Positions 16,369 to 64,000 of a DNA stretch of 64,000 nucleotides are shown here, in pieces. Position 1 is the stretch's first letter. Each line of letters begins with the position of its first letter. Origin of the DNA: Myxococcota bacterium (GTDB lineage: Bacteria; Myxococcota_A; UBA9160; UBA6930); the NCBI GenBank assembly GCA_965223705.1, contig OZ245015.1, positions 3,328,001-3,392,000 on the forward strand, given 5' to 3'. Below the pieces are notes generated by a model. That model made no database searches. It was given only the letters and a program-made list of their open reading frames with translations, and had not been told where the DNA came from. The translations under genes were made by a program, and so were the position numbers.

Positions 16369-16378
16369 GGGATCGACG

Positions 16379-41537: not shown

Positions 41538-41830
41538 GTGGCGCCTGTGACGGAGCCCACCATCGAGTACTTCTACTCCGCGCACTCGGCGTTTGCCTAC
41601 CTGGGTTCGGCTCGCTTTCTCTCCCTGGTGAAGAGCCATGGGAGACGTGTCGCTCACCGCCTGATCGACCTCGACCGTGTGGTCGAAACCGTCGGCGCCG
41701 GACCGTTCCGGGCTCGCTCCGCAGCACATGTCGCGTATTTCTTTGGCCGCGAAATAGAGCGTTGGAGTTGTTCTACGCGCAGGATTGCCTGGAGATGATG
41801 GAGCGTGCGCTCGATCGGCCCTATCGCTAG
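41538..41830 (+). pseudogene. Internally deleted HCCA isomerase/DsbA-family pseudogene
   Basis: N-terminus IEYFYSAHSAFAYLG...REIERW is joined out of frame at about 41765 to the family C-terminus ELFYAQDCLEMMERALDRPYR*. Confidence 0.78.
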
Positions 41831-41845
41831 GACGCCGAGTCCCTC

Positions 41846-43258: not shown

Positions 43259-43323
43259 GAGTTGCGATTCCCGGTGAGCTCGCGTTCAATGGCGCGAGCA
43301 CGCGGCCATGAGGAACGCTCTCC

Positions 43324-47426: not shown

Positions 47427-48625
47427 GGGGGAGCCTCGCCGCCGGAACTCCTCTTTCCGATTGCGGTCTGGCGTTTCAGATGGCGCCGGGATCGCAGATA
47501 GAGAAGCGGCCCGGCGAAGGCACCGAACAACTCCGCCGCGGCGACGCGAAGCGGTGGGCTCCCCGGGTGTCCGATCACCGAGCGAAGAAAGGCCCGCCCG
47601 GGCCCCGACCACAAGTACGCGAGACCGATCTTGAGGACGCCAAAATCTCGCTCTTCGAGTAGGGCGCGCGTCCACCACGCAAACACGCCCGAGCCATAGG
47701 CCGCCGAAACGTCGGATAGCGCCTGCTCGTCGCTGCGGTGGCGGTGCCAAACGAGCGCCCGCGGCTCGTACACGATCCGAAGGCCGCGCGCCAAAACGCG
47801 GTAGAAAAATTCGTGATCTTCACCGCAGCGGGTGAGTGTCCCCGGGCCGAGCGCTTCGTCGAAGACTCCGATCTCGTCGAGCGCCGAGCGTCGTATCACC
47901 ATGTTGACCGAGGCCCCCGCGAGACCTGCTGCGAGAGGTGTCAGCTGGTGGCGATCGAACTCTCGCCGCTCGTAGCCGCGACAAAATCCGTGGGCCTTCT
48001 CGAACCAGACCTGGGCGGGGGTCTCGAGCTCGAGGGGCATGGTGGCACCGGTCACGACCGCGACGAGCGGATCGGCGAAGCACCGCGAAACTCGTGTGAG
48101 CCACCTCGAATCGGGAACCGCGTCGTCGTCCGTGAACGCGACGAGCTCGGTCCGAGTCTCCCGAATCCCGCGATTGCGAGCCGCCGCCGCCCCTGGGCGC
48201 AGCTCCCGTACGTACCGAACCCCCGGCGTGCGATCCACGAGGGCCCGGGTCCGCTCGTCGCTCGGCGCATTGTCGACGACGAGGATGTCGGAGACCGGCG
48301 GGTCCATCGCCAGTAGGCCGTCAAGGCATCTCGCCAAGTCTTCGGGCCGGTCGCGGGTGCATACGACGACGGACAGATCGGTGGGTCCTCCGGACTGGAA
48401 TTCGGCTTCTTCGATCTTGCTCAGCCATGCGGGCCAGGCGCAGCGCCGGGCGGCCTGATCGAGGGATTCCGCGTCCAGTCGGCCGTCTCGCACGGGCAAC
48501 CAAGCTTGGCCGACCACCGCTTCGTCTTGGCGAAACACGACGAAAGCTTCCGGATACGGATCGAGGTCGTGGAGCTCCGTCGGAAGGGAGGCGAGTTGAA
48601 CCTCGCGAACAGCGGCTACAGACAA
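47420..48625 (-). CDS. GT2 glycosyltransferase
   Basis: SVVVCTRDRP, VDNAP, FTDDD, GEDHE, YEPRALVWH. Confidence 0.9.
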   Translation of the reverse strand: MSVAAVREVQLASLPTELHDLDPYPEAFVVFRQDEAVVGQAWLPVRDGRLDAESLDQAARRCAWPAWLSKIEEAEFQSGGPTDLSVVVCTRDRPEDLARCLDGLLAMDPPVSDILVVDNAPSDERTRALVDRTPGVRYVRELRPGAAAARNRGIRETRTELVAFTDDDAVPDSRWLTRVSRCFADPLVAVVTGATMPLELETPAQVWFEKAHGFCRGYERREFDRHQLTPLAAGLAGASVNMVIRRSALDEIGVFDEALGPGTLTRCGEDHEFFYRVLARGLRIVYEPRALVWHRHRSDEQALSDVSAAYGSGVFAWWTRALLEERDFGVLKIGLAYLWSGPGRAFLRSVIGHPGSPPLRVAAAELFGAFAGPLLYLRSRRHLKRQTAIGKRSSGGEAPPC

Positions 48626-48718
48626 CGCGAGAACTCCGCAGGTGACCGTCTATGACAACACAGTCAAGGCCGCCAGACAACACCCGGGTCGCGGTGCAGA
48701 AGGCGGTACTGTAGGGCG

Positions 48719-50704
48719 ATGTCCGACGGAAGCCGGGTCGCCGTCCGTGATGTAGACGTGCGACGCGTGGAAAGTCTTGAGGGGCTCGCCGCATATGGGG
48801 CGGTCGAGGTGCTTTTCCGCGACCAGGGCGTTCCTGTGGGCCGAGCCCGGCTCCTAGCTCCGAGTGCGAGGCTCCGTGCCGAGGCGATCCGGAAGGCGTG
48901 TCCACCCTTCCCGAAGGGCGACCGAACAGCCCGAACCCCCGGGATCATCCCGACACTCAGCGTCGCCGTCTGCACTCGCGATCGGCCTCGAGAGCTCGCT
49001 GCCGCGCTAACGACTCTCGCCCGCCAGGAGACCCCGCCGCTCGAAATCCTCGTCGTCGAGAACGGCGAGGCCGGCGAGACGCGCGCGGTAGTGCAGCGCT
49101 GTCTTCCCTCCGCGCGCTTCTTGCATGAGCCCGAAGCCGGTTTGGACTTTGCGCGCAATCGCGCCCTGATGGCCGCGGGCGGTGACCTGATCGCCTTTCT
49201 CGACGACGACGCCGAGGCGGATCCGCAATGGGCCGGCCGCATTGTCGAGGCGTTCGCGAACGATGCGGAAATCGGGGCCTTGACCGGCCTCACGATGCCC
49301 CTCGAGCTCGAGACGACGGCCCAGTGTTTGTTCGAGGCCAACGGTGGATACGGACGCGGGTTCGAAGTCCGACGCGTTCGGAGGCACGAGGGCATGTGGC
49401 ATGAGCTACTGCGTCCACTTCCCGCCCGAGTGCTCAACAGTGGGAATGGTTGCAACATGGCGTTTCGCGTGTCCGTCCTGCGCGCCGTTTCCGGGTTTGA
49501 TCCGGCGCTTGACGCCGGGCCTCCACTGCCCGGAGGCGGAGACCTCGACGCGCTTCTGCGAGTTTGCCAAGCCGGGCACGACATCCTCTACGAACCGCGT
49601 GCTCTGGTGCGACATCGACACCGCCGAACACTCGATGCCATGGACAAGCAGCTCGCGGGCCACCACCGCGCCGGAGTCGCCTACTTGGTCAAGAGCGTGG
49701 CGGGCGCTTCCGGAATCGCGCGACTCGGCGGCGTACTCTTCCTGATCTGGCGTCTTGTCAAGAATCCACTTCGGTTGTTGCGCTCCTGTGTGGGTCTCGA
49801 TCCCCTTCCGCCGCGCACACTCGCGGCTATGTCGAAGGCAGCCGTCGCAGGGCTGGGTAGCTACTCGTTGTCAAAAGCTCGCCAACGGCGGCACGTCCGG
49901 CGCCATGGCGGTCGTCCGCCGAACGCCCGCTCACAGGCCATCGACACGTGGCTCCACCGCGAGCTTGTCTGGCGACTCACCCAAAGGGATCTCAAAGCAA
50001 AGTATCAGGGTTCGTGGTTGGGCTTTCTTTGGACGTTGATCAACCCCCTGGTCACGATCGGCGTGATGGTTGTCGTCTTCTCACAGATCGTGCGGATTCC
50101 CGTGGACCGCTACTGGGCCTTTTTGTTGAGCGGCTATTTCGTGTGGTCATTCTTCGCGCAGACGCTCACCGGTGGCGTCCAAAGCGCCGCAGGAAACGCC
50201 TATCTGACCCGCAGTGCGTGGTTTCCGCAGGAATCGCTGGTGCTCGCCGCCGGAATCGCGCGCTTCCTCGAGTTCGCCATCGAGATGACCATCGTGGCGG
50301 TCGTGTTGGCAATCTTTCATCACGGCGCCATTCCCGCCTCCTACCTGGCTCTGCCCATCATCGTCCCCGCTCTGTTCATCGTTGTCATCGGCGTCGCTTT
50401 TCCGATCGCCGCACTCGCCGTCTACTACGTCGATACCGTCCACGCCTTGCCCTTGGCGATCGCAGCTCTTTTCTACGCGACGCCCGTTTTCTACCCGTTG
50501 AGCATCGTTCCCGAGCCGCTGCGCGCGTTCTTCGCACTGAATCCCATGGCGTTCCTGATCGATCTGTTTCACGACACCCTCTACAAGGGCGTGCTTCCGA
50601 GCTCGGCCGAGCTGGGGCTGACCGTCCTCGGCGGCATTGCTATCGCGGGGACCGGCTACTGGCTCTTCAACCGTCACAAGCGCAACTTTGCGGAGTTGTT
50701 GTGA
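48719..50704 (+). CDS. GT2 glycosyltransferase fused to ABC-2 polysaccharide exporter permease (Wzm)
   Basis: SVAVCTRDRP/FLDDD GT2 domain, then RDLKAKYQGSWLGFLWTLINP...FYATPVFYP...LNPM Wzm domain in one frame. Confidence 0.85.
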   Translation: MSDGSRVAVRDVDVRRVESLEGLAAYGAVEVLFRDQGVPVGRARLLAPSARLRAEAIRKACPPFPKGDRTARTPGIIPTLSVAVCTRDRPRELAAALTTLARQETPPLEILVVENGEAGETRAVVQRCLPSARFLHEPEAGLDFARNRALMAAGGDLIAFLDDDAEADPQWAGRIVEAFANDAEIGALTGLTMPLELETTAQCLFEANGGYGRGFEVRRVRRHEGMWHELLRPLPARVLNSGNGCNMAFRVSVLRAVSGFDPALDAGPPLPGGGDLDALLRVCQAGHDILYEPRALVRHRHRRTLDAMDKQLAGHHRAGVAYLVKSVAGASGIARLGGVLFLIWRLVKNPLRLLRSCVGLDPLPPRTLAAMSKAAVAGLGSYSLSKARQRRHVRRHGGRPPNARSQAIDTWLHRELVWRLTQRDLKAKYQGSWLGFLWTLINPLVTIGVMVVVFSQIVRIPVDRYWAFLLSGYFVWSFFAQTLTGGVQSAAGNAYLTRSAWFPQESLVLAAGIARFLEFAIEMTIVAVVLAIFHHGAIPASYLALPIIVPALFIVVIGVAFPIAALAVYYVDTVHALPLAIAALFYATPVFYPLSIVPEPLRAFFALNPMAFLIDLFHDTLYKGVLPSSAELGLTVLGGIAIAGTGYWLFNRHKRNFAELL

Positions 50705-51495
50705 TCGACCGCCAGCCGCGCCAGACTTTGGAGCTCGCCGACGACGTTGCTGTCGGGCTATGCAACGTGACGAAGCGATTCGTTCACTACGAAGGTACCC
50801 CGCGCACGCTGCGAAACCTTTTCATTCGATCAGCGAAGCGACGAGCCACGACACAGAGCTACTTCTCGGTACGAGACATCTCCATCCGAGTGGCACGCGG
50901 CGAGAGTGTCGGCATCATCGGCGACAACGGAGCGGGAAAAAGCACGCTACTCCGCCTGATCGCGGGGATCTATTGGCCGAGCGAGGGGTCGGTCATGACA
51001 CGTGGACGCTTGGCCCCATTGATCGAACTCGGCGTCGGGTTTCATCCGGAGCTGACAGGTCGTGAGAATGTCTTTCTATACGGATCGATCCTCGGGATTC
51101 CAAGTGACGTTCTCGAAGCGCACTATGACGACATCGTCCGAATGTCGGGCATCGCCGAATTCATGGACAGCCCCGTCAAGCACCACTCTTCCGGGATGAG
51201 GGCGCGACTCGGCTTCGCCGTCGCAACGGCGATCCGCCCAGATATTCTGTTGCTCGACGAGGTTTTCGCCGTCGGGGACGTCGGCTTCCGAGAAATCTCC
51301 GTGGCTCGGCTGCGCGCCTTCCAGGAAGCTGGAACGACGACGCTGCTCGCAAGTCACGACCTCGGCATTGTGCGCGAATTCGCAACGCGGGTCATCTGGC
51401 TCGAGAATGGCGCGATCGCGGCCGCGGGAGAGGTCGAAGAGGTGACCCGGGCCTATCAGCACGCGAAGTTTCCGACTGGAGAACCCGCCGGGTGA
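50701..51495 (+). CDS. wzt: Polysaccharide ABC exporter ATP-binding protein
   Basis: GTGA overlap; GDNGAGKST, GFHPELTGREN, SSGMRARLGF, LLLDE; no C-terminal carbohydrate-binding extension. Confidence 0.9.
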   Translation: MIDRQPRQTLELADDVAVGLCNVTKRFVHYEGTPRTLRNLFIRSAKRRATTQSYFSVRDISIRVARGESVGIIGDNGAGKSTLLRLIAGIYWPSEGSVMTRGRLAPLIELGVGFHPELTGRENVFLYGSILGIPSDVLEAHYDDIVRMSGIAEFMDSPVKHHSSGMRARLGFAVATAIRPDILLLDEVFAVGDVGFREISVARLRAFQEAGTTTLLASHDLGIVREFATRVIWLENGAIAAAGEVEEVTRAYQHAKFPTGEPAG

Positions 51496-52586
51496 ACTCC
51501 CAGTCGGCGATACCTGAGAAGCCGGACCTCAGTGTGGTCATTCCTACCAGGAACCGCCCGCAAGCGCTCGCGTTGACGCTCAAAGCCCTGTCACGCGTCG
51601 ACTTTCCGCCGCCCGAACGATTCGAGGTCGTGATCGTCGATGACGGTTCCGCAGAGCCCGTCGGACGGAGCGAATTAGAACGGACCGCCCCGAAGCGAAC
51701 CCGGGTCGTGCGCCATGAGAGGCCGTTGGGTGCAGCGGCCGCGCGCGAGCACGGCTGGCGCGTCGCCACGGGAGAATGGGTGCTCTTTCTCGACGACGAT
51801 GTTCGCCCTGCCCCCGAGCTGCTCGTCCGCCATCGGGAAGCTCAGCAGCGGAGCGGTGCGGAGGTCATTTTGGGAAGCTGCCCGTTTGAGGCGCGGGATG
51901 CCGAACCACCCCATGTGCGCCTCACCCGACTTTGGTGGGACTCACACCTCAAGAGACTGGCGACGGACGAGCCGAGCTGGTTCGGTCAGCTGACAACAGG
52001 AAATGTCTCGATCCGTCGCGACGTCCTCGTGCGTTGCGGTGGATTCGATGTGACGTTTCCCGCTCGGGAGGACTACGAGTTGGGACAGCGCTTGCTCGAT
52101 GCCGGCGCCGCCTTCCACTACGAAGCGGCTGCGCGGGCCGTCCAGACCTGTTGCGAGAGCATCCATGAATGGCTCGAAGGATTTCGGGCGTGTGGTCGGG
52201 CTGACGTCGCTTTCGCGTGGAAGCATCCGACTAAGGTCGCTGTCCTCATGCGGCGCGCGGGACTGGCCCCGGTGCCGCGATGGTTTGGCGGCCGCGCGCT
52301 GGCTCTCGCTACTCGGTTCCTCACTCGATCCCGCGCCCGCTACGACTTCCGTTGGATGTTATCCTCACGCTTGGTTCTCGCGGATCGCTATTGGGGCGGT
52401 ATCCGCGAAGCTTCAGCGGACCCGAGAATCCCGGGCCTCCTAGAACGCGCACAACGTTCCGGATCAAGCGCGGAGTGGCTCGCGTGGCGATCCGCTTCAG
52501 ACATGCCCGGACTCGGTCAAGGCCCGGGAGCGGGATCCGCGGCGCGGAGCCCTTCCCACGGGCACTCGGTGCACTCGTATCGGTAA
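51492..52586 (+). CDS. GT2 glycosyltransferase
   Basis: SVVIPTRNR, VDDGS, FLDDD, EDYELG. Confidence 0.9.
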   Translation: MNSQSAIPEKPDLSVVIPTRNRPQALALTLKALSRVDFPPPERFEVVIVDDGSAEPVGRSELERTAPKRTRVVRHERPLGAAAAREHGWRVATGEWVLFLDDDVRPAPELLVRHREAQQRSGAEVILGSCPFEARDAEPPHVRLTRLWWDSHLKRLATDEPSWFGQLTTGNVSIRRDVLVRCGGFDVTFPAREDYELGQRLLDAGAAFHYEAAARAVQTCCESIHEWLEGFRACGRADVAFAWKHPTKVAVLMRRAGLAPVPRWFGGRALALATRFLTRSRARYDFRWMLSSRLVLADRYWGGIREASADPRIPGLLERAQRSGSSAEWLAWRSASDMPGLGQGPGAGSAARSPSHGHSVHSYR

Positions 52587-53599
52587 AACCGCAGACCAAC
52601 GCGCTCGAGGCTTCGGTCTCTGGCCGTGCGAGGGATTCGTTCGATCCGGTGGCTGCCGCACCGCGGACAGCCGCCGTGCCGGCTCAGCGATGGATGATTC
52701 AGGACCCAGTGCTTGGCCGGGACGCACAGGACGAGGAGAAGAGCGCCCAGGAAGACCGCAGTTAAGATTCCGGCGCCACCCTCGTATGCGAGCCAGGCCA
52801 ACGCGCTCGGAAATCCGTAGATCACTTCAGCGACGCCGGTTTGCGCGTTCAGTCGAAAAACCATGGGCTCATTTTCCCGAACGGTCGTGACCTCGAAACC
52901 TTCGATGTCGACAGTTCTTCCATTCGCTCCGACGCTGTGCCAGGTCCCGGTTCCGACGATCCGGACCTCAAACGTGGCTGGGCTCGCCACACGCGTGTAG
53001 AACTGAAACTTCGACGCGCCGAACGGTGTCAGCGCCGTGCGTCCTTCGTCGTGTCTCCAGCCCTGGAAACCACCCGTCGCCGTGTAGGCATCGTGTCCGT
53101 CCTCGGCAACCAACAAGATCCGGCTCGCTTGACCGCTCGCAGTCCGTTGCTGAACCAGCTTGAAGCGGACGACCTGGCCCGGTTCTTTAACCACGGCCCA
53201 GGACGCCTGCGGTGGGATCTGAATGCGCCAATCGCCGCACGCGACAGCCACCCAGAGGTAGTGGCCGGCCGCGTCAAATCGAAATTCCGCCGAATAGATC
53301 CCGTCGCCCGCCTCTTCGTCAGCGTCGAGACCTCGATCGTTCATCGGGTGACTGGCGCTATCCCACGCTTGGAAATCCCCCGCCAGGCACCACCCAGTAT
53401 CGGGTACCGTGATGTCGCGCAGGACGTGGGTCGGCGTGCCCCGTTCGGCGAGCTGCGTTGCGAGGAGCACATAGGGATTGGCCAACGACGCCAAAGCGAG
53501 GACAACGGCGATCGTCGCAAGGATTGGCCACAGCCGCGCTCCTTCCTTCTGGGGCTTCGGCTGGTGCCCGTCCGCTGATGCCTCCGCCGTCTCGGACAA
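52517..53599 (-). CDS. Membrane protein with two carbohydrate-binding-like repeats and a C-terminal Zn ribbon
   Basis: TM; AGDFQAW...AGDGIYS and TGGFQGW repeats; TM; CPRC-x26-CTEC; TTG start after GGGAGA inferred. Confidence 0.62.
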   Translation of the reverse strand: MSETAEASADGHQPKPQKEGARLWPILATIAVVLALASLANPYVLLATQLAERGTPTHVLRDITVPDTGWCLAGDFQAWDSASHPMNDRGLDADEEAGDGIYSAEFRFDAAGHYLWVAVACGDWRIQIPPQASWAVVKEPGQVVRFKLVQQRTASGQASRILLVAEDGHDAYTATGGFQGWRHDEGRTALTPFGASKFQFYTRVASPATFEVRIVGTGTWHSVGANGRTVDIEGFEVTTVRENEPMVFRLNAQTGVAEVIYGFPSALAWLAYEGGAGILTAVFLGALLLVLCVPAKHWVLNHPSLSRHGGCPRCGSHRIERIPRTARDRSLERVGLRFYRYECTECPWEGLRAADPAPGP

Positions 53600-53716
53600 C
53601 CGCGTTCTCCCTAGCGCCGAGCCGAATCGATTCGATGCCGGGTAGTTCGGGACAATGAAACCGCCGATCGCAACTTCTTGCCAGACGGCCCCGAATACAA
53701 GGACGTGGGTGACGCG

Positions 53717-54757
53717 ATGACCGAAAAGCTCAGCGTGTGCGTCATCAATCGAAACGGTGGCGATGCGCTTGTCAACACATTGGCGTCCATCATGGAACAG
53801 GGGGACATCGTTGCCGAGGTTCTTCTCGTGGACAACGCATCGGACGACGGTAGCCCCGAAAAGGCCCTCGCGTGCCACCCTTCCGTCAAGCTCGTCCGGC
53901 GGGAAGACAATTGCGGTCCCGGTGCAGCCCGAAACGCGGGATTCCGGGCGGCACAATACGAGCGAATCCTATTTGTCGACGGCGACGTCCGCCTGCAGCC
54001 AGGTTGCGCCGCGCAGCTGCGACACGCTCTCGCGCACTCGGAACGCATCGTCGCGGCGATGCCCCGTGTTCGGTTCGAGGATACGGGGGAAGTTCAGTGC
54101 GATGGAGCAGATTCTCACTATCTGGGTTTCATGTTGGTCCAGCACCAGAGGGGAAATGAGATGCGGCGCATCGGATCTATCGTGTCGGCCTGTATGCTGC
54201 TCGATCGCTCTCGCTGGGGGCGGTCGGATCCGTTTGATGAAGACTTCTTCATCTACTACGAAGATCACGATTTCGGCCTTCGAGCGCGCGCTGCCGGATG
54301 GGAGCTTGTGGGCGTACCAGCCGCAGTGTGCTCTCACGGAGGGGGCACGCCCGGGTTGTCGTATCGCCCTGGACGCTCGTATCCGACCGGGCGTGTCTAC
54401 TTCCACATCCGTAACCGTTGGCAACTCATCCTCAAGAACTACGAGTTCGGATCCCTGTGTCTCTTGGCGCCCTGCCTGCTCTTCTACGAAGCTCTCCAAC
54501 TCGCGGGCGTCGTAAGCAAGGGTTGGTTCAAAGAATGGACACGCGCCGCGGAGTGGGTGCTCTCCAACCGGCGGACACTTCTCGCGAAGCGCCGCGCCGC
54601 AAGCGCAGCGCGGACCGTCTCCGATCGCGAGCTTTGGGTCGGCGGAGAGTTGCCATTCCATCCGGGACTACTGACCCGCCGCGGGGAGCGGGCCGCGTTG
54701 CGCTTCGTCAACGCTGTCCTCGCAGCCTATTGGCGCCTTTGCTCGAGAATCCTCTAG
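53717..54757 (+). CDS. GT2 glycosyltransferase (rhamnosyltransferase-like)
   Basis: VDNASDDGS, FVDGD, FDEDFFIYYEDHD, RNRW. Confidence 0.88.
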   Translation: MTEKLSVCVINRNGGDALVNTLASIMEQGDIVAEVLLVDNASDDGSPEKALACHPSVKLVRREDNCGPGAARNAGFRAAQYERILFVDGDVRLQPGCAAQLRHALAHSERIVAAMPRVRFEDTGEVQCDGADSHYLGFMLVQHQRGNEMRRIGSIVSACMLLDRSRWGRSDPFDEDFFIYYEDHDFGLRARAAGWELVGVPAAVCSHGGGTPGLSYRPGRSYPTGRVYFHIRNRWQLILKNYEFGSLCLLAPCLLFYEALQLAGVVSKGWFKEWTRAAEWVLSNRRTLLAKRRAASAARTVSDRELWVGGELPFHPGLLTRRGERAALRFVNAVLAAYWRLCSRIL

Positions 54758-54799
54758 ATGCACTAACATGGCCGGCGGACCCCGTGCTCTGGATCTTCG

Positions 54800-55999
54800 A
54801 TGTCAGTCCGCCGCGTTCTCATGGTCGCTGCCTGTCCGTTCCCCGCGAACCGCGGAACCCCGATTCGGAGCTTTCGATTGGCCGAGGCCATCTCCAAGGC
54901 CGGAATCGAAGTCGAGGTCGTCACTTATCACTTGGGACGAGCGCAGCCCGAACCGAGCTTTTCGGTTTACCGGACCCCGCGCGTGGCGACGTATGTGCGC
55001 TATCGGCCGGGACCCTCCCTGCAGAAACTGGTGGTGATGGACCCGTTGCTGATGCGGAAGATCCGCTCGCGTATCCGGCGCAACCCTCCCGACGTGATTC
55101 ATGCCCATCACTGCGAGGGTTTGCTAACCGCGTTGTTCGCAAGTCCCGATTCCGAGTGCCCCGTGATCTACGATGCGCACACGATTCTGGGCGCGGAGCT
55201 CCCCCACTACCTTCCGCGCTGGATGAAAGCCCCGGGGCGCTGGCTCGGCGATACGTTCGACCGCTATCTCGCGAGGCTTTCCGAGTTCGCCATTGTCGGC
55301 ACCCAGGGGATGAAAGACGAACTCCTCGAGCGGAATTTTGGCCCGGAGAAGTGCATTCGAGTGATCCCCAACGGCGTAGATTTCGATGCGTTTACCCCCA
55401 TCGACCCTACTCGATTGGGAACCGACGAAGGCAATACCATCGTATTCGCGGGAAATTTGGCTCCCTACCAAGGTCTGCAGCTGCTTGCGGAGGCCTTCAA
55501 GGTCGTTCGCTCCTACCGCCCGGACGCGCGACTTCAGGTCGTTACCGAAGATCGAACGCGCCCAGTGGGTTGGCCAGCAGAGATCGAGCTGATCAACGCT
55601 TCGTTTCGCGAACTGCCCGCCTACCTGCACCGGGCCGACATCGCCGTCAATCCGCGGTCGGATTCCGCCGGAATGCCGCAAAAGCTGTTGAACTACATGG
55701 CAGCCGGGCTTCCCGTCGTCTCCTTCGCACGAGGGGCCGAAGTGATCGAGCACGGGAGCACGGGCTTTATTGTTTCAGAACCAACACCGGACGCACTGGC
55801 TCGCGGTTTGATCGAGATGCTGAACAACAGGGCACTCGCGCGCCGGTTGGGCGCCAATGCGCAAAGAAAAGTCCAGCGAGAATTCAGCTGGGCGCGTGCG
55901 GCGGAGGATTGCCTGTCTGCGTACGCTGACTTTAGGGAGACCAAGGCGAGAGAGCGCTCGCGAGGAGAAAGCGTTCTCGGACGAAAGGAACTGCGATGA
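54800..55999 (+). CDS. GT4 glycosyltransferase
   Basis: DVIHAH, IPNGVD, FAGNL, PQKLLNYMAAGLPVV, FSW. Confidence 0.9.
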   Translation: MSVRRVLMVAACPFPANRGTPIRSFRLAEAISKAGIEVEVVTYHLGRAQPEPSFSVYRTPRVATYVRYRPGPSLQKLVVMDPLLMRKIRSRIRRNPPDVIHAHHCEGLLTALFASPDSECPVIYDAHTILGAELPHYLPRWMKAPGRWLGDTFDRYLARLSEFAIVGTQGMKDELLERNFGPEKCIRVIPNGVDFDAFTPIDPTRLGTDEGNTIVFAGNLAPYQGLQLLAEAFKVVRSYRPDARLQVVTEDRTRPVGWPAEIELINASFRELPAYLHRADIAVNPRSDSAGMPQKLLNYMAAGLPVVSFARGAEVIEHGSTGFIVSEPTPDALARGLIEMLNNRALARRLGANAQRKVQREFSWARAAEDCLSAYADFRETKARERSRGESVLGRKELR

Positions 56000-56466
56000 C
56001 GCAGGAGACCATGCTTCGGTGGCTCGTTGACATCGAACAGATCAAGCAGCTCAAGCACCGCTATTGTGCGTACTGCGACGAACAATACGACCCCGAAGGC
56101 ATCGCCGGCCTCTTCGCCGAAGACGGCGTGTGGGAAGGCGGGCCTTTCGGCCGCGCGGAGGGCCGCGACGGGATCCGCCAGTTCTTCGGTGACGTGTCGA
56201 AACAAGTCGAGTTCGCGAATCACTACGTGACCAATCCGATCATCGACATCGACGGTGATTCGGCGACTGGACGTTGGGACTTGTGGCAGCCGATGGTGAT
56301 GACCGAAGGTCCCGCCGCTCTCTGGCTGGTCGCGAAGTACCGAGAACAATACGTGCGATCCGGAGATCAGTGGTTGTTCCGACTCCTTGAGCTCGACGTC
56401 AAGGCGCTGTCGCCCTACGAAGAAGGTTTCGCGAAGCAGCGCCTGATCGAAACGGAGGCATCGTGA
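55996..56466 (+). CDS. SnoaL/NTF2-like protein, BaiE/LinA-type (SnoaL_4)
   Basis: DIEQIKQLKHRYCAYCD, LFAEDGVW, HYVTNPII, YREQYVR...WLF. Confidence 0.85.
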   Translation: MTQETMLRWLVDIEQIKQLKHRYCAYCDEQYDPEGIAGLFAEDGVWEGGPFGRAEGRDGIRQFFGDVSKQVEFANHYVTNPIIDIDGDSATGRWDLWQPMVMTEGPAALWLVAKYREQYVRSGDQWLFRLLELDVKALSPYEEGFAKQRLIETEAS

Positions 56467-56882
56467 CGAAGCAGCAAGCGATCGACACCGTCAACCAGTT
56501 TATGAAGCTCCTCCTCACGGATTTTCCGAAGTGCTTGAAGATGCTCTCCGACGACTTCGTGTGGGAGAACTTCTTGCCTTCACATGTTCCGTTCGGCGGA
56601 CGCTACGAAGGCGCTTCCGGCCTTCAGAAGTACCTCGAACAACTGTCAGCGACTTGGGTGATCGGAGAGCTCGTGTTTCTCGATTTCATCTTCGATTCCG
56701 AAACGAGCATCTTGGCAGCGACCGGTGTCGAGAAAAACGGCAAAGCTCTGTCGACCGGACGCACTTGTGACATGCCGTTCGTCTGGGAGTTTCGGTTTTC
56801 CGAGGATGGCAAGATCACCTACCTCCGCGAATACAACGACACCGCTTCGATCGGCGGCACGTTCGACGCGGCCGGTGCTTGA
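56463..56882 (+). CDS. SnoaL/NTF2-like protein
   Basis: LSDDFVW, VPFGGRYEG, TGRT, GKITYLREYNDT. Confidence 0.82.
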   Translation: MTKQQAIDTVNQFMKLLLTDFPKCLKMLSDDFVWENFLPSHVPFGGRYEGASGLQKYLEQLSATWVIGELVFLDFIFDSETSILAATGVEKNGKALSTGRTCDMPFVWEFRFSEDGKITYLREYNDTASIGGTFDAAGA

Positions 56883-56894
56883 GCGGAGGAGCCC

Positions 56895-57455
56895 ATGACG
56901 CAACTCACTCGAATCCCTCGGTCCGAGCTCACCCCGGAACTGGTTGCGCTTCACGACCAGTTGACGAAGGAAGGCGTTGATGCGCGGTTTGTCGAAGCGG
57001 GCGCGAACGCTCCCGAACTCCTCGATTGGTACTTCAACAGCTTCTACGGAAAGGTCTTCTACGATGGCCGTGTCGACGCTCGAACGAAGGAGCTGTTGCG
57101 CCTCAAGCTGTCGAAGACCCACGGCTGCTTTCTCTGAAACCGCGTGAACACTGCCTCGGCGAGGCAGCACGGAGTGACGCAGGCTCAGATCGATGCTCTC
57201 CCCGACGACGTCGAGAACGAGGCATTCTCGGAGAGAGAACGGGCGGTCCTACGAGCGGCCGAACAGATGGTCCTCACCAACCTCCACGGCATGCTCGAGG
57301 ACGGACATTACCAGGCGCTGAAGAAGCACTTCTCCGACGGCGAGATCTTCGAGCTGGGCATGGTGATGGCCGTTCTCTGCGGTTTTGCCAAGTTCTTGTT
57401 CTGCTTCGACTTGGCTGATCGCGAGGACACCTGCCCGATCCACCCAGGCGCGTAG
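56895..57455 (+). CDS. AhpD/carboxymuconolactone decarboxylase-like protein, probable selenoprotein (CFLU, TGA at 57135-57137), 186 aa
   Basis: ORFs 56895-57137 and 57144-57455 share a frame. Read-through gives RTKELLRLKLSKTHGCFL-U-NRVN...FSERERAVL...LKKHFSDGEIFEL. RBS GGAGG is seen only at the first start. Confidence 0.86.
57143..57171 (+). promoter_or_regulatory. Candidate bacterial SECIS hairpin
   Basis: CTGCCTC-GGC-GAGGCAG 7-bp stem (57151-57167) with a G-first loop 21 nt after the TGA; lower stem CGTG/CACG. Confidence 0.75.
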
Positions 57456-57461
57456 TTCGGG

Positions 57462-58364
57462 CTACGCGGACGCGGCCTTCGACAACCACTCCCGGATGGC
57501 TTCTCCGATTTCGTGAGGACAGTCCTCCTGGAGAAAATGGATGCCGGGGAGCGTGATCTCCTGCTGGTTGGGCCAGGCCCGACAGATCTCCCGCGGCCGA
57601 CCGACCAGGATCGCGCCGGGTTCCGCATTGATGAACAGTTTCGGGAACGCCGCGGTATTCATGAAGTCGGCGTTTGCCGCGACGGCTTCCACCACGTCCG
57701 TCGGCTGCCCCGCTAGCGGGATCTGGCGCGGCCAAGTCAGCGTCGGCCGCCGGGATTCTCCGGCTTCGGTATACGGGGCGCGGTAGACGTTCATCTCCTC
57801 GTCGCTGAGCTTGCGCTGGATCGCGGCGGGTAGAACTTGTTCGATGAACACGTTTTGCTCGAGGACCATGGCCTCTCCGGCATTCGAACGAAAGCCTTCG
57901 AAGAGCCCCACGAACTCCGGCGGAAAATCGGACCACTCGAGAGGGGTCACGATGGCCTCCATGTACGCAATGGCTCGAACGCGATCGGGGTGTTGTCGTG
58001 CCCACTCAAAGCCGAGGGCCGAGCCCCAATCGTGAATGACCAGCGTCACCGGACCTTCCGGTACCAGCGCATCGATGAAGCCGTTCAGGTAGTGACGATG
58101 CTGCGCGTACGTATAGGAGAACACGGAGGGCTCGGGGAGCTTTTCAGAGTCACCCATTCCGACAAGATCCGGGGCGATGCAACGGGCCCGATCCGCCAGG
58201 TGGGGCATGATGTTTCGCCACAGGTAGGACGAGGTCGGGTTGCCGTGTAGAAACAGGATCGGTTCTCCGGAACCGATCTCGACGTAGGCCATCTCCAGTC
58301 CGTGGACGTCGACCTTTTGTTTCTTCGCGGGGTGGTTCGTTTCGATCGATCGGGCATCGGACAT
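57462..58364 (-). CDS. dhaA: Haloalkane dehalogenase, HLD-II (LinB/DhaA type)
   Basis: HGNPTSSYLWRN, VIHDWGS (Asp nucleophile, Trp), YMEAI (Glu), TWPRQIP, GIHFLQED (His). Confidence 0.93.
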   Translation of the reverse strand: MSDARSIETNHPAKKQKVDVHGLEMAYVEIGSGEPILFLHGNPTSSYLWRNIMPHLADRARCIAPDLVGMGDSEKLPEPSVFSYTYAQHRHYLNGFIDALVPEGPVTLVIHDWGSALGFEWARQHPDRVRAIAYMEAIVTPLEWSDFPPEFVGLFEGFRSNAGEAMVLEQNVFIEQVLPAAIQRKLSDEEMNVYRAPYTEAGESRRPTLTWPRQIPLAGQPTDVVEAVAANADFMNTAAFPKLFINAEPGAILVGRPREICRAWPNQQEITLPGIHFLQEDCPHEIGEAIREWLSKAASA

Positions 58365-58439
58365 CGGGTTCCTCACTTCGCGAAACCAGGGTTGTGCGTT
58401 CGCCGTATACTCTAGGTTACCGGGCCCGAGGAGAACCAC

Positions 58440-59246
58440 ATGAGTGAGAAACTGCGTTTCTTGCACCATCCCGCCTCACAACCGTGCCGAGCGGCGCGCC
58501 AGTTCCTAATCGAAAACGACATCGCTCATGTCGATGAGATCATCGATATCACGACGAACATCAACGAGACCCAAGAATTCAGAGATCGCTACAACCCGAC
58601 GGGGCAAGTGCCTATTCTTGTCGACGGCGACTTCGTGGTGTGGGAGAACGTCGCGATCGGGCGGTACTTGGATGAAAAATTCGAGTGCGAAAGCCACTGG
58701 TTCGGTTCCAGCCTGGAAGAGCGGGCGAAGATCAACCAATTCGTTCAGTGGTACGCGTACACACTGCGACTCGGCGGGGGGGCGTTCCACTGGACGATCT
58801 TTGCTCCGATGATCTATGGGCCGGACAAAGATTTCACCGCGGAACGGAGGAAGGGATATCACGTCCTCTACGAGTCTCTGGAGGTGCTAGAGAACTACTG
58901 GCTGAAGAGCAGCGACTACTTGTGCGGCGAAGAAGTGAGTTACGCGGATCTAGCCGCTTACCACGAGCTGGTGTCGCACGACGCGGGGAACATCATTCCC
59001 GAGAACGTCTGGAAAAAGCATGGCCGCATCACCGCGTGGTTCGAGCGCATGTCGGCGCGGCCGGCGAGCAAGGCGGTGAGTGCGTGGCAGTACGAGACGA
59101 TCCGCAAAGTGCTCGCCGGAGAGATCTCCGTGGAATTCAATCGGCGCACCGCCGTACTGAAAGGAACGGAGGCTTTTGGGGGGCACAACAACGGCATCCC
59201 TCATCTCGGCGAAGAGCGGGACTACCTCGCCGAGGTGGAAGCCTAG
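58440..59246 (+). CDS. dcmA: Dichloromethane dehalogenase-like theta-class glutathione S-transferase
   Basis: HHPASQPCR, RYNPTGQVPILVDGDF, WYAYTLRLGGGAFHWTIFAPMIYG, LVSHDAG, SAWQYE, TAVLKGTE, GHNNGI all match my recollection of Methylophilus DM11 DcmA; 268 aa. Confidence 0.87.
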   Translation: MSEKLRFLHHPASQPCRAARQFLIENDIAHVDEIIDITTNINETQEFRDRYNPTGQVPILVDGDFVVWENVAIGRYLDEKFECESHWFGSSLEERAKINQFVQWYAYTLRLGGGAFHWTIFAPMIYGPDKDFTAERRKGYHVLYESLEVLENYWLKSSDYLCGEEVSYADLAAYHELVSHDAGNIIPENVWKKHGRITAWFERMSARPASKAVSAWQYETIRKVLAGEISVEFNRRTAVLKGTEAFGGHNNGIPHLGEERDYLAEVEA

Positions 59247-59283
59247 TTTCATCCGGTTAGTCGCCGGGGTGGAGGCCTGGTTT

Positions 59284-60204
59284 TCAGCCGGCAAAGCGCG
59301 GCTCTGGCACGCCTCGTACGCCCAACCCGTAGATCGCAAAGACCGATCCGGCTTGAAACTGCGGCTTCACTTGCTTCGCGAACCGATCGTGCACGGCCGG
59401 GTGCTTGACGCGTGCCATCGAAGTCACGAACAAGATGTCGAGGTCAGGGCCGCCGAAGATCACACTGGTCACGTTGCGCACGGGCATGCCGATGATGCGG
59501 TCGACCTCACCGTCGGGCGTGTACCGAACCAGCTCTCCGCCGATCACCATCGCGTTCCAGATGCAGCCGTCGGAATCGACGGTTGAACCGTCGTACAAAC
59601 CCGCCATCTCCTTGCTCGAGGCGAAGACCCGACGGTTCGAGACCTCGCCGGTCTCGATCGCATAGTCGTAAGCCCACATCTCCTCGCGGAACGTGTCCGC
59701 GAAGTAGAACGTTTTGTCGTCTGGGCTCCAGCAAGGACCATTCGAGCAAATGATCCCGTTGTCGACCCGGGTCGTCGTGAGATCCGGATCCAGGCGCCAC
59801 AACCCACAGAGGTCGAGCTCCTCCTTGTCGTCCATGCCACCCGCGAAGAAGCGGCCACGTCGATCGACCTTTCCGTCGTTGAGTCGGGTTCGCGGCTCGT
59901 CGGCTTCGATTTTCGTGATTAGCTCGGGTTCACTTCCCGAGTCGAAATCGAAGAAATAGAAACCGTCGTTCATCGCGAGGACAGCGCCGCCCGACTCGCG
60001 TAACACCATGGCCCCCACGTCTTGAGTCGTCCGCCAAGAATCGATCTTTCCGGTCGAGAGTTCGAGGCGCCAGAGCGACGGATTTCCGACGCGGGGTCCC
60101 GTCCCGTCGACCCAGTAGAGTCGGTTCTCGCGGTCGTCCCAAATCGGGCTCTCCCCGAGGTGGTTCTGACACGGGACGAGGGTTTCGATGCGGACGGTCA
60201 CCAC
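59284..60204 (-). CDS. SMP-30/gluconolactonase family protein
   Basis: LGESPIWD, RLNDGKVD, SNGPCWSPD, DGSTVD, FGGPDLD. Confidence 0.92.
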   Translation of the reverse strand: MVTVRIETLVPCQNHLGESPIWDDRENRLYWVDGTGPRVGNPSLWRLELSTGKIDSWRTTQDVGAMVLRESGGAVLAMNDGFYFFDFDSGSEPELITKIEADEPRTRLNDGKVDRRGRFFAGGMDDKEELDLCGLWRLDPDLTTTRVDNGIICSNGPCWSPDDKTFYFADTFREEMWAYDYAIETGEVSNRRVFASSKEMAGLYDGSTVDSDGCIWNAMVIGGELVRYTPDGEVDRIIGMPVRNVTSVIFGGPDLDILFVTSMARVKHPAVHDRFAKQVKPQFQAGSVFAIYGLGVRGVPEPRFAG

Positions 60205-60304
60205 CGACCTCCTCTCTCGGGCTTTTGAGAGCCCGTCCTATACTAGCGGTCGGCACGACGCGACCCACGACCGCGTATACTGTGCCCCCTAAAGGGAGGA
60301 ACCC

Positions 60305-60934
60305 ATGAAACTTCACGATTGTCAGATGGCACCGAACCCCCGCCGCGCCCGGATCTTCCTCGCAGAAAAGGGGATCGATTGCGAGATGGTTGAGCACAGC
60401 ATTCTCGGCGGTGAAACGAACGCCGGCGACTACCTAAAGATCAACCCATGGGGCACCGTACCGGCCCTCGAGCTCGACGACGGCACCGTCATCCGCGAAG
60501 CACCGGCGATCATGCGCTACCTCGAATCCCAACACCCGGAGCCCAATCTGATGGGCAGCGATCCGCGCGAGGCCGCGGAGATCGAAGCTTGGGAGCGATT
60601 CTCCGAGCAGAACGGTATCGGTGCGATCGGCGAGTTCTTTCGCAACCAGACCGATGCGCTCAAGGGGCGCGGGATGCCCGGCCCGACGAGCCTGGAACTG
60701 ATTCCCGGCCTGGTGGAGCGTGGCAAGAAGCGCGCGGGCTGGTTCTATACCGAGCTCGACAAGCGCCTCGGCGAATCGGAATACCTGGGCGCGGGTCGCT
60801 ACACCGCGGCGGATATCACCGCTCAGTGCGCAGTCGACTTCGGCAACGCCGTGGGCATGGGGATACCCGACGCCTGCAAGAACGTCGCGCGCTGGCACGC
60901 GGCGGTGAGTTCGCGACCGAGCGCCGCGAGCTAA
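60305..60934 (+). CDS. Glutathione S-transferase (GTT2-like)
   Basis: APNPRRARIFLAEKG, NPWGTVPALELDDG, YTAADITA. Confidence 0.92.
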   Translation: MKLHDCQMAPNPRRARIFLAEKGIDCEMVEHSILGGETNAGDYLKINPWGTVPALELDDGTVIREAPAIMRYLESQHPEPNLMGSDPREAAEIEAWERFSEQNGIGAIGEFFRNQTDALKGRGMPGPTSLELIPGLVERGKKRAGWFYTELDKRLGESEYLGAGRYTAADITAQCAVDFGNAVGMGIPDACKNVARWHAAVSSRPSAAS

Positions 60935-60939
60935 GCCGC

Positions 60940-63357
60940 CTACGGCTTCCCTCTGCCCGAGAGCTCCCTCGCGGCATCGACGTCGATGCTGCGAAGATGC
61001 AGGTCTCGCTGTGGGAACGGAATCTCGATATCGGCTTCCGTGAGGGCGCGGTTGATCTCCGTGTTGATCCGTGACTGTACGACGTACCAGTCGTCGTAGT
61101 CCGCGATCCAAACGCGAAGTTCGAAATCGAGCGAGCTATCCCCGTGCCCGCGAAACAGCGCCACCGGCGACGGGTAGCTGAGCGATTTTTCTTCGCGTTC
61201 GGCAACGCCCCGGAGAAGCTCGAGGACGCGGTCGGGCTCTGTTCCGTACTTCACGCCAATGGGGATGTCGACCCGACGCGTTTTGTCGGAAAGCGTCCAG
61301 TTCGTCACTTGCTGCGAAATGAGATCCGCATTGGGAACAATGATCTCGGAGCCCTGATACGTTCGAAGGGTGCTCGATCGGATTCCGATACGACGGATGA
61401 CGCCCAGTTGATTCCCCAGGTCGATCGTGTCTCCGACTTGGATCGGACGTTCAAAGAGCAGAATGATTCCGCTCACGAAGTTGTTGACGACATTCTGCAA
61501 GCCGAAACCGATTCCCACGCCGAACGCTCCAGCCAACAAAGCAAACCGGCTCAGGTCGATGCCGGCAGCCGCCACGGCGAGAAGAAAGCCCAGGAACAAG
61601 ATCACGTACTGTGCCGTGGCGCTAACCGCGTGGGGTATCCCCCGTCCGGTCCGTATTCTCGGGAAGACGTCTTCCATCAAGAGGAAGCGCACGACCCGGG
61701 AGAAGACGATGGATGCGGCGATCGTGATCGCGAAAGCCGCCACGTCTCCGAGCGACACCGCGGCCTCACCCCAAGTGACGGATGTCGTCAACGCCGTTCT
61801 GGCCGCGGCGACCACGGGATCTCGGACAGCGAACGACCCCAGGCTCAGGTAGGCCCACAGCAGCGCGCCCGCGATCGAGATCCCTCTGAGGATCCAACCC
61901 ACGGCGACGCCGCGACGGGCGCGCAGGAATTGGAGTTTTTGTGCGCGCGCAGTCCGCGTACCCACATCGACTGCGGTCCACAGAATCTGCACGCCGGCGT
62001 ACACAGCGATCGCGGTATAAACCGTCGCAAGCATGCCCTCTCCGAGCACTTTGCTGAGTGAGAAGTAGCCCAAAACGTTCGCGAGAAACGAGACGGAGAA
62101 GACGACGAGAGCGACGCGGACGGCGGTACCGAGCCAACGCGGGACCGAATTGGCGTCGGGCACCTTCGCCAAACGAGCGGGTCGCAGCAGTAGAATGCAC
62201 AAACACGAAGCCGCCACACACTCGATCGCGAAAATCACGCGGCTCTCGAGCGCGGCACCCTGAAACGCGGCGCGAAGGCGGTCGACGACATAGAACGCGG
62301 CGACGGCGTACAAGACCGGGCGGAATTCGGTGTGCGTGAGACGCGGAAGCAGCACCACGAGCGGCAGTAGCAGAAGCAGACCCACACCATCAAAGAACGC
62401 ACTGGGAGCGAGTGGGAAAATCCAATACGTCAATAGCAGTGCCGCGACGAGTGCGAGCGCCAACGGGTGCTCGAGCGCTTCCGCGGACCGCTCGATTTTC
62501 CCGCCAGCCGCCCGACGCGCCGCAACACTCCGCTTGAGATTACGCGCAGCGAGCCACGCGACCACGAAGAAAAGGGCGACCAAACCGACGTGGCGAGGCC
62601 TCTCCCCGACGAACCCGCGGATCGCGACCCAATTCGTTTTGAGTGCGGTCGCGATGTTCGCGGTCGGTTTCGCGTCGCTGTCGGAAAGCGCCGACCAGAT
62701 CGGCGCACTGTCGGGTTCAAATAGGCGATCGCGAATCGTGGCTCGCGATTCATCGATTGACTCCAAGACCTCAGAAGCGAGAAGTTCCTGCTGGGCAACC
62801 CGGTTCTGCAAACCCAAGACTTCGCCGCGACGCCTCGAGACGACTTCGCGGACGTCCTTGATCTCCTCCTCGGAGCGCGTGATCGCCGCGATGACTTCGT
62901 CGGGCGCGCCCCTTTCGTTTGCGGACGTCAAGCTCGCGGACCAGACCTGGTCGAGCGACCGGAGCTTCTCGACTTCCCGTCCCAGTCGCGCGACCCTCCG
63001 AGTGAGCGTGGTGCGCCACGCTTCGAGTTCGCTGGCCTGCCGCCTCCAATCGCGTTCCAGAGAGTTGAGCTTTGCGAGCGCCGGCCGATGTTTCAGCAAC
63101 GTTTGGGTCTCCACCCGTCGTCGCTCCAGCTCGGAAATAGCCCCCGCGAGAAGATCTTTGACAGCTTCGATCGATACGTCGGGCTCTGCCAAGGCCCGCG
63201 ACCGTCTCAGTAGGCTCGCCGTTTCCTCCGCACGCTCGGCGACTTCCGCAACGGGTATGGGCTGAGGGAGAGAGGGGCCGTCCTCGGCAGGGGCGTCCTC
63301 GCCCAGCGCCGGCAGCGAAAGCAAGAACCAAACAACGGCAAAGAAGGCTTGGCGCAT
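60940..63357 (-). CDS. Large MscS-family mechanosensitive channel (MscK-like)
   Basis: Signal, periplasmic coiled coil, many TM helices, GVGIGFGLQNVVNNFVSGIILLFERP, VPN, VTNWT, IPFPQRD. Confidence 0.92.
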   Translation of the reverse strand: MRQAFFAVVWFLLSLPALGEDAPAEDGPSLPQPIPVAEVAERAEETASLLRRSRALAEPDVSIEAVKDLLAGAISELERRRVETQTLLKHRPALAKLNSLERDWRRQASELEAWRTTLTRRVARLGREVEKLRSLDQVWSASLTSANERGAPDEVIAAITRSEEEIKDVREVVSRRRGEVLGLQNRVAQQELLASEVLESIDESRATIRDRLFEPDSAPIWSALSDSDAKPTANIATALKTNWVAIRGFVGERPRHVGLVALFFVVAWLAARNLKRSVAARRAAGGKIERSAEALEHPLALALVAALLLTYWIFPLAPSAFFDGVGLLLLLPLVVLLPRLTHTEFRPVLYAVAAFYVVDRLRAAFQGAALESRVIFAIECVAASCLCILLLRPARLAKVPDANSVPRWLGTAVRVALVVFSVSFLANVLGYFSLSKVLGEGMLATVYTAIAVYAGVQILWTAVDVGTRTARAQKLQFLRARRGVAVGWILRGISIAGALLWAYLSLGSFAVRDPVVAAARTALTTSVTWGEAAVSLGDVAAFAITIAASIVFSRVVRFLLMEDVFPRIRTGRGIPHAVSATAQYVILFLGFLLAVAAAGIDLSRFALLAGAFGVGIGFGLQNVVNNFVSGIILLFERPIQVGDTIDLGNQLGVIRRIGIRSSTLRTYQGSEIIVPNADLISQQVTNWTLSDKTRRVDIPIGVKYGTEPDRVLELLRGVAEREEKSLSYPSPVALFRGHGDSSLDFELRVWIADYDDWYVVQSRINTEINRALTEADIEIPFPQRDLHLRSIDVDAARELSGRGKP

Positions 63358-63432
63358 TTCCCTGTGATCCTAGCCGAGCCGGAACTGGCGGGGGCGGCTA
63401 CGGTCTGCGCGGCGTGCTTCGGGAGAAACTCG

Positions 63433-63816
63433 ATGTCGAAAGTCCATACGCCTAGGAAGATTGCGGCGACTCTCACCGACCTCTGGTCCCCGCAAATTCT
63501 CGCCGAGGTCGATGACGCCTACATCAAGGTCGCCAAAGTCGAAGGCACCCTCGCCTGGCACAGCCACGACGATGAAGACGAGCTCTTCTACGTGCTCAAA
63601 GGGTGCCTCAGGATCGAACTCGAGCACGAAACGGTAGAGCTCGACGAAGGCGACCTCTTCGTGGTCCCGAAAGGCACCCCGCACAACCCGATCGCAGAAT
63701 CCGAATGTCACATCCTGCTGATCGAGCGGAAGACAACCCTTCACACCGGAGGTGTCGTGACAGACAAAACGCGATCGATCGAGGAGCAACTCCGAGGCCG
63801 CCCCCGAGCTCGCTAG
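63433..63816 (+). CDS. Cupin-domain protein
   Basis: WSPQI, WHSHDDEDELF, VVPKGTPHNP, HTG. Confidence 0.88.
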   Translation: MSKVHTPRKIAATLTDLWSPQILAEVDDAYIKVAKVEGTLAWHSHDDEDELFYVLKGCLRIELEHETVELDEGDLFVVPKGTPHNPIAESECHILLIERKTTLHTGGVVTDKTRSIEEQLRGRPRAR

Positions 63817-64000
63817 ATATCGATCTCCCGTGCCCGAACGATGAATCGCTGTGGGGCGCTGCCGACCCAGTAAAACGGGTAACACGTAACGAGGGTCAAC
63901 GTAGGCGTGGCCGTGGGATCGAGGACGTGAACGGCTTCCGGTTCGACAACACGGATGAGATCGACGGCAAAGGTCCGCGTCCGCCCGGGTGTCTCGATCG
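63813..64000 (-). CDS. Sortase (class D-like), C-terminal fragment, truncated by the window edge
   Basis: Manual translation, absent from the ORF track: ...VVEPEAVHVLDPTATPTLTLVTCYPFYWVGSAPQRFIVRAREIDI* (TLxTC plus catalytic Arg). Confidence 0.88.
   Translation of the reverse strand, partial: IETPGRTRTFAVDLIRVVEPEAVHVLDPTATPTLTLVTCYPFYWVGSAPQRFIVRAREIDI

Follow-up and report, generated by a model that had tools for sequence, protein, structure and literature searches.

The stretch of DNA analysed here (the window) comprises 64,000 nucleotides of a Myxococcota bacterium genome (contig OZ245015.1, positions 3,328,001 to 3,392,000) and carries two predicted dehalogenase genes that stand head to head: a gene for a theta-class glutathione transferase (GST) of the DcmA family (58440-59246, forward strand) and a gene for a LinB-like haloalkane dehalogenase of subfamily II (HLD-II; 57462-58364, reverse strand). 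DcmA has been described as strongly conserved, and the methylotrophs from which it is known were grown on an industrial solvent. A first-pass annotation had read the two genes, together with a SnoaL_4, a SnoaL and an AhpD gene that converge on the haloalkane dehalogenase, as a chromosomal module for organohalides. All open reading frames of the locus lie where that annotation placed them, and the two dehalogenase genes diverge across exactly 75 bp (58365-58439), as it had claimed; the module itself fared worse. What the locus holds is a new member of the DcmA family in an unconserved neighbourhood.

The assignment of the GST to DcmA holds, and on stronger grounds than the first-pass annotation could have known. 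Its best named match is DcmA of Methylophilus DM11 (P43387), with 63% BLAST identity, followed at 58% by a cluster that contains DcmA of DM4, GJ21, MC8b and Ancylobacter. In a single alignment the protein is 62% identical to DM11 DcmA, 60% to that of DM4 and 62% to that of MC8b; between DM4 and DM11 the identity is 56%. Of the 145 positions that are invariant in the four characterised DcmAs, 124 are conserved in the window's GST, and 97-107 in six proteins of the sister clade. An N-terminal catalytic serine is present: Ser13 aligns with the serine of DM11 (Ser12, position 13 of the record if Met is counted) that is essential according to a title cited in PMC5585157.

When 28 proteins were placed in a careful tree with the sister clade as root, the group of the window's GST was supported with 100/100 and was sister to the DM4 group (98/92), and both lay inside a 100/100 clade together with DM11. 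By sequence and by this position the GST is a DcmA-family member of a third clade, nested between the DM4 and DM11 types, and a likely dihalomethane dehalogenase. The third clade comprises 23 rows (the window and loci L021-L042) in a quick tree of 73 rows, for which the careful search was incomplete and from which five loci with short or broken matches were excluded. Record titles place its loci in Alpha-, Beta- and Gammaproteobacteria, one Mycobacteriaceae and one metagenome-assembled genome (MAG) of Myxococcota, and NCBI already gives some MAG proteins of the clade the name dichloromethane dehalogenase. The literature searched, of partial coverage and with most subscription papers outside it, held no description of a third clade and none of a dcmA-HLD cluster; the annotation's remark that no system with this arrangement has been described agrees with that search.

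The haloalkane dehalogenase is equally well defined. With 421.7 bits it clears the NF002938 cut-off of 241, its best natural match is LinB (E ~1e-111), and the Asn/Asp/Trp/Glu/His pentad, which we take to define HLD-II, is intact at N42/D112/W113/E136/H276 in an alignment to LinB, as the first-pass annotation had it. It is an ordinary HLD-II and, judged from these residues, likely active. The host genome carries a second HLD-II gene, 63% identical. A DNA search over the class, which scored two candidates per genome and was used for HLD frequency only, matched the HLD part of the locus in about 87 of 224 other genomes; HLD-II are common in the class. Haloalkane dehalogenases are reported as widespread without a history of pollutants (PMC6299022), and all Binatota genomes are reported to encode dhaA, one of them also dcmA (PMC8262859). 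DcmA and the HLD are likely two independent dehalogenating enzymes, as far as sequence can tell.

A genome scan confirmed at least 416 relatives of DcmA, the best 80 of which were analysed: 74 belong to the DcmA family (69 with at least 1 kb of upstream sequence) and six are distant GSTs. An HLD gene divergent from dcmA occurs at none of these 74 loci, nor at three close metagenome loci. One locus (L047) has an HLD-II (44%) 6.6 kb downstream of dcmA, and three others have weak hydrolase matches. Four Binatia genomes have an HLD at a distance of 46-57 kb from dcmA; being kin, with one to four HLD matches each, they were not counted. Lactonase homologues (53%) about 5 kb downstream in L036 and L037 were likewise not counted as linkage. 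Conserved linkage in relatives, which the first-pass annotation had itself proposed as the test, is absent at all 74 loci, and orthologues are scattered in the relative described below; synteny of DcmA and HLD is thus rejected. According to the annotation, substitution by DcmA, hydrolysis by the HLD and elimination by the SnoaL_4 protein would have been co-selected for natural organohalides and placed under shared control by the divergent promoter. Two true dehalogenase families that lie 75 bp apart must indeed share promoter space, and a recent, lineage-specific assembly could still be selected. However, the pair recurs at none of the 74 loci (taken from the best 80 of at least 416 relatives), the locus contains no regulator, and the host genome has seven SnoaL_4-like and two HLD-II genes. 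We regard co-selection as very improbable.

Among 225 genomes of the class, DcmA is present in two, the host (G000) and a relative of the same order and a different family (G061, identical with G341), whose RecA is 87% identical. The relative has orthologues of six of the seven genes of the locus, at 76-89% protein identity, spread over four contigs: AhpD and dcmA are 5.3 kb apart in the same order and strand, the HLD and the second GST (89%) are 4 kb apart, the SnoaL_2 gene stands alone, and so does the lactonase (80%), on a separate contig. An AhpD orthologue was found in none of 60 relatives searched. Many catabolic genes shared by the two genomes, at 72-84% DNA identity, have been shuffled almost gene by gene, and several of them have protein matches of 60-85% in Binatia-type loci. 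A shared accessory pool that is shuffled gene by gene is sufficient to explain a one-off contact between dcmA and an HLD gene, which is therefore probably accidental. Our preferred interpretation, held with moderate confidence, is that a DcmA-family GST, a likely dihalomethane dehalogenase, has come to lie next to a likely active HLD and a SnoaL_4-SnoaL-AhpD(Sec) run (Sec, selenocysteine), and that the locus was likely assembled by gene shuffling in an accessory catabolic pool and not kept as one system.

Several observations weigh against this interpretation. In the GST, 21 of the 145 invariant positions are altered, including S247G and Y255H near the C-terminus, and the approximately unbiased (AU) test barely rejects a clade of DM4 and DM11 that excludes the GST's group (p 0.0496). 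The linkage counts rest on the best 80 of at least 416 confirmed relatives, and the relative G061 is fragmented (about 600 contigs), so that links could be hidden. Furthermore, of 15 orthologue pairs, two are still no more than 6 kb apart in G061. As a background, 409 kb of G061 in 40 stretches, some chosen for matching the locus, were compared with the host for pairs 1-6 kb apart: 0 of 27 stayed within 6 kb at an identity of at least 72%, and 8 of 91 at one of at least 68%. The two linked pairs lie above the former value but near the latter, and are therefore suggestive at most. Finally, SnoaL_2 occurs in 12, DcmA in 11 and both in 9 of 201 Binatia-class genomes, and the two are at most 51 kb apart in 9 of 13 genomes that have both on one contig; kinship can explain this co-occurrence. 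One locus drawn in the Binatia-class sample (L057, genome G097) is titled uncultured Enterobacteriaceae, and this title may be wrong.

The run of genes that converges on the HLD, all on the forward strand, begins with a lyase-type SnoaL_4/NTF2 protein (PF13577; 55996-56466) whose start overlaps the stop of an upstream glycosyltransferase gene. The first-pass annotation had called this protein LinA-fold. The fold is indeed shared, with a model (predicted local distance difference test 90.5) that superposes on LinA 3a76 with a template modelling (TM) score of 0.82, a root mean square deviation of 1.3 A and 20% identity, and with an invariant dyad of H76 and D28 that corresponds to LinA His73-Asp25 in the NTF2 barrel (PMC3507683). 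This dyad and the superposition are what would commend an eliminating enzyme in a co-selected module. Nevertheless, BaiE and LdpA are at least as close to the protein as LinA is: the single sequence matches LinA with E 0.095-0.44, a profile of 43 sequences finds BaiE at 1e-14, LdpA-type entries at 1e-10 and LinA at 7e-6, and a Foldseek search has a putative scytalone dehydratase and LdpA at the top of its ranking and LinA tenth or lower. A His-Asp dyad with a Tyr oxyanion hole is described as a theme common to BaiE, scytalone dehydratase, LinA and decarboxylases (PMC9942872), and Y23 is invariant here as well. Beyond the fold, an identity as LinA is unsupported. Nor was an orthologue of more than 53% found in 50 genomes, 49 of them DcmA carriers (best match 53%), which counts further against a module. 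The second gene of the run (56463-56882) encodes a SnoaL_2/NTF2 protein (PF12680) of a small family (69 matches), with a fold like ketosteroid isomerase and limonene epoxide hydrolase; the match to epoxide hydrolase is one of fold, with a profile E of at least 0.013. Match lists of the SnoaL_4 and SnoaL_2 proteins share equal longest-contig sizes (31600, 93698, 2942 and 876 bases), a hint that the two genes travel together elsewhere.

The third gene of the run (56895-57455) encodes an AhpD/CMD-like protein of 186 aa (PF02627) that is interrupted by one in-frame TGA (57135-57137) in the motif CFLU, giving C78-x-x-U81. Fourteen other loci, from 13 genomes, have TGA at this site, which corresponds to the second Cys of CxxC; three more distant homologues have Cys instead. 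A hairpin like a selenocysteine insertion sequence (SECIS) follows on the same strand (57143-57179; upper stem 57151-57167, GGC loop), in which 97% of cells are paired over 11 sequences and three pairs have changed on both sides; the sequences are related coding sequences, so that the pairing figure is not a formal probability, and the copy in the window has a weaker lower helix. The host genome has tRNA-Sec and SelB. Judged by these features the protein is a real selenoprotein of known kind, as had been annotated; AhpD-like families with CxxU (AhpD-like 1 and 2) are listed in PMC2398784. SnoaL_2 follows AhpD in 12 of 13 Binatia-type loci, and the thirteenth ends at a contig edge: it is AhpD(Sec) and SnoaL_2 that form a conserved unit, and not the two dehalogenases. 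The SnoaL and AhpD(Sec) genes of the run probably make up a unit of their own, a lyase with a thiol reductase. The host genome has ten AhpD-like loci (on contig C1 among others 2491759-2492838, 2351514-2352581 and 3205072-3205533), and eight of them carry an in-frame TGA in CxxU, a large AhpD selenoprotein expansion in one genome.

A selenium-dependent redox partner of DcmA, likewise proposed in the annotation, is a weak but live lead. A thiol reductase with Sec, of AhpD or Prx type, might keep glutathione reduced or clear dead-end glutathione adducts that arise in dihalomethane turnover; the window's AhpD would then be the partner and the HLD a later insertion between the two. Sec redox genes of three unrelated families recur beside DcmA-family genes. 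A 363-aa CxxU protein of NF041238 is divergent from dcmA in 15 loci (L043-L055, L059 and L066; 14 titled Binatia/Binatota) and its gene is also adjacent in the sister-clade loci L073, L074 and L077; in all three close metagenome loci (L127:1-423, L128:1-531 and L129:1-624), third-clade dcmA is immediately preceded by a co-oriented UxxC AhpC/TSA gene; and the window shares with L032 a 186-aa AhpD gene upstream of dcmA and co-oriented with it. No convincing candidate was present at 25 control loci of other GSTs, 19 of them with flanks of only about 1.5 kb. On the other hand, these control loci are few and short, the Binatia loci are related to one another, and the three metagenome contigs seem to derive from a single species. 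The 186-aa AhpD occurs within 10 kb in only 1 of the 22 other third-clade loci (L032), loci of dcmRABC type do without such a partner, and the long and short AhpDs have no significant similarity. With so many AhpD-like loci in the host, moreover, the probability that a randomly chosen position falls within 6.5 kb of one is 2.9%, and it is higher in catabolic regions. A partnership of this kind appears unlikely, though it merits attention.

Among the 22 other third-clade loci, dcmR (helix-turn-helix plus MEDS domain) is present in 11, dcmB in 13 and at least one of them in 16. At the window's locus there is neither a divergent dcmR nor a downstream dcmB or dcmC. Neither a MEDS domain nor a DcmR was found in the host genome (95% complete), and a DcmB-like CmcJ/NvfI protein, 61% identical to third-clade DcmB, is encoded 1 Mb from dcmA (C1:2387784-2388734). 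Nitrilase genes stand near dcmA-family genes at five loci (L034, L035, L041, L042 and L067), as reported for DM4 and MC8b also, and alcohol dehydrogenases of the cluster that contains FrmA do so at four (L067, L079, L082 and L086).

Activity on CH2Br2 and CH2I2 is a known property of DcmA enzymes. In the mechanism we propose for the window's GST, a glutathione thiolate activated by the serine would displace halide from CH2X2, and the resulting S-halomethylglutathione would hydrolyse to S-hydroxymethylglutathione or formaldehyde, which FrmA and FghA of the host could oxidise to formate. The reported products of DcmA from CH2Cl2 are formaldehyde and 2 HCl (PMC5585157). The genes for the further steps lie elsewhere in the genome, where GshB, FrmA, FghA and 12 pyrroloquinoline quinone (PQQ) alcohol dehydrogenases exceed their cut-offs. 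Because the host genome yielded no DcmR, DcmA is probably not regulated by that route, and would serve to detoxify or to scavenge. Longer haloalkanes would be the substrates of the HLD, which would act on its own and yield alcohols for the PQQ alcohol dehydrogenases.

Alternatively, the third-clade GST might act on another small natural electrophile, with weak or absent dihalomethane activity, and the characterised dichloromethane (DCM) enzymes would be recent specialisations. No clade member is named as characterised among the database matches, the 21 substitutions fall at otherwise invariant positions, and dcmB, a CmcJ-type oxidoreductase, and the nitrilases beside some loci point to a chemistry not yet understood. 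Yet the clade is bracketed by two active groups that are more distant from each other than from it, and dcmR with its MEDS domain has been kept beside half of its other loci. Such a substrate seems to us highly doubtful, and a dihalomethane dehalogenase remains the reading we prefer.

Beyond the GST, an SMP-30/gluconolactonase family protein (SGL, PF08450; 59284-60204, reverse strand) and a second GST, unrelated to DcmA and with paralogues in the host genome (60305-60934, forward strand), complete the locus, and domain matches confirm both as annotated. A full sigma70 consensus was absent in a promoter scan of the locus. The gap between the dehalogenase genes, too short for a regulator gene, contains a -10-like TATACT hexamer (58406-58411); three copies occur across the two divergent intergenic regions (58365-58439 and 60205-60304) and 45 on both strands of the 4.54-Mb contig C1 that holds the window, and those in the intergenic regions are likely -10 elements, judged by motif and place. 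The gene order is not a join error, because assembly contigs of run X4 (57225-64000) and run X1 (52000-58245), from the only study that contains this DNA, span the locus; all four runs of that study are of one sample, possibly the source data, and so are not independent. Codon use and GC content at third codon positions are typical for the host. As for signs of mobile elements, there is no tRNA near the locus, no informative repeat and no close plasmid match; integrases were not searched for. Upstream (about 41800-55999) lies a polysaccharide cluster of glycosyltransferase and ABC-export genes, the last gene of which has atypical codon use (4th percentile). A 17-kb contig (C2) repeats at 14453-17008, with 99.8% identity, C1:3390035-3392592 (window 62035 to end), and represents a strain variant or a repeat beside the locus; it also matches C1 at 3.65-3.68 Mb with 75-79%.

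The value of the locus is that of a test case for the natural substrate of DcmA; a multi-enzyme module adds little to it, because the arrangement is seen in one genome only. A third clade that lies between two characterised types, and whose hosts are uncultured and belong to several phyla, offers direct candidates for the natural role of DcmA, and could represent an uncounted aerobic sink for dihalomethanes relevant to ozone. DCM is reported to have natural sources as well (10.1101/2021.08.30.458270), and the system of MC8b has been called the most divergent DcmA system so far (PMC7760279). One may go further, as a long shot, and propose that the clade has been passed by transfer among uncultured bacteria of several phyla and constitutes the reservoir in nature of aerobic dihalomethane dehalogenation, its original substrates being biogenic CH2Br2 or CH2I2. 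In loci that lack dcmR and dcmB its partner would be a selenoprotein reductase, recruited three times from different families; in the boldest form of this proposal, a selenolate would strip one halogen from bromoform to feed DcmA.

Compared with known systems, the GST shares 60-62% identity, the catalytic serine and the C-terminal extension with DcmA of Methylophilus leisingeri DM11 (P43387) and Methylorubrum extorquens DM4 (P21161), but belongs to a separate clade and its activity is a prediction. In contrast to the dcmRABC islet, it has no adjacent dcmR, dcmB or dcmC, whereas many members of its clade keep dcmR and dcmB. The HLD passes NF002938 with a full pentad, as LinB, DhaA and DmbA do; HLDs of its type are common in the class and usually not near dcmA, and its substrate range is likewise predicted. 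With LinA, BaiE, scytalone dehydratase and LdpA the SnoaL_4 protein shares an NTF2 barrel with a His-Asp dyad, but it differs from LinA in its 20% identity, a profile nearer to BaiE, an invariant Tyr23 of oxyanion-hole type and a neighbourhood free of lin genes. The AhpD protein, finally, has the CMD/AhpD fold, CxxU motif and SECIS-like hairpin of the AhpD-like 1 and 2 families (PMC2398784) and of NF041238 (AhpD_rel_CFYUT); unlike these it passes no NCBIfam cut-off and represents a subfamily paired with SnoaL_2, the proteins of NF041238 being longer and of a different family.

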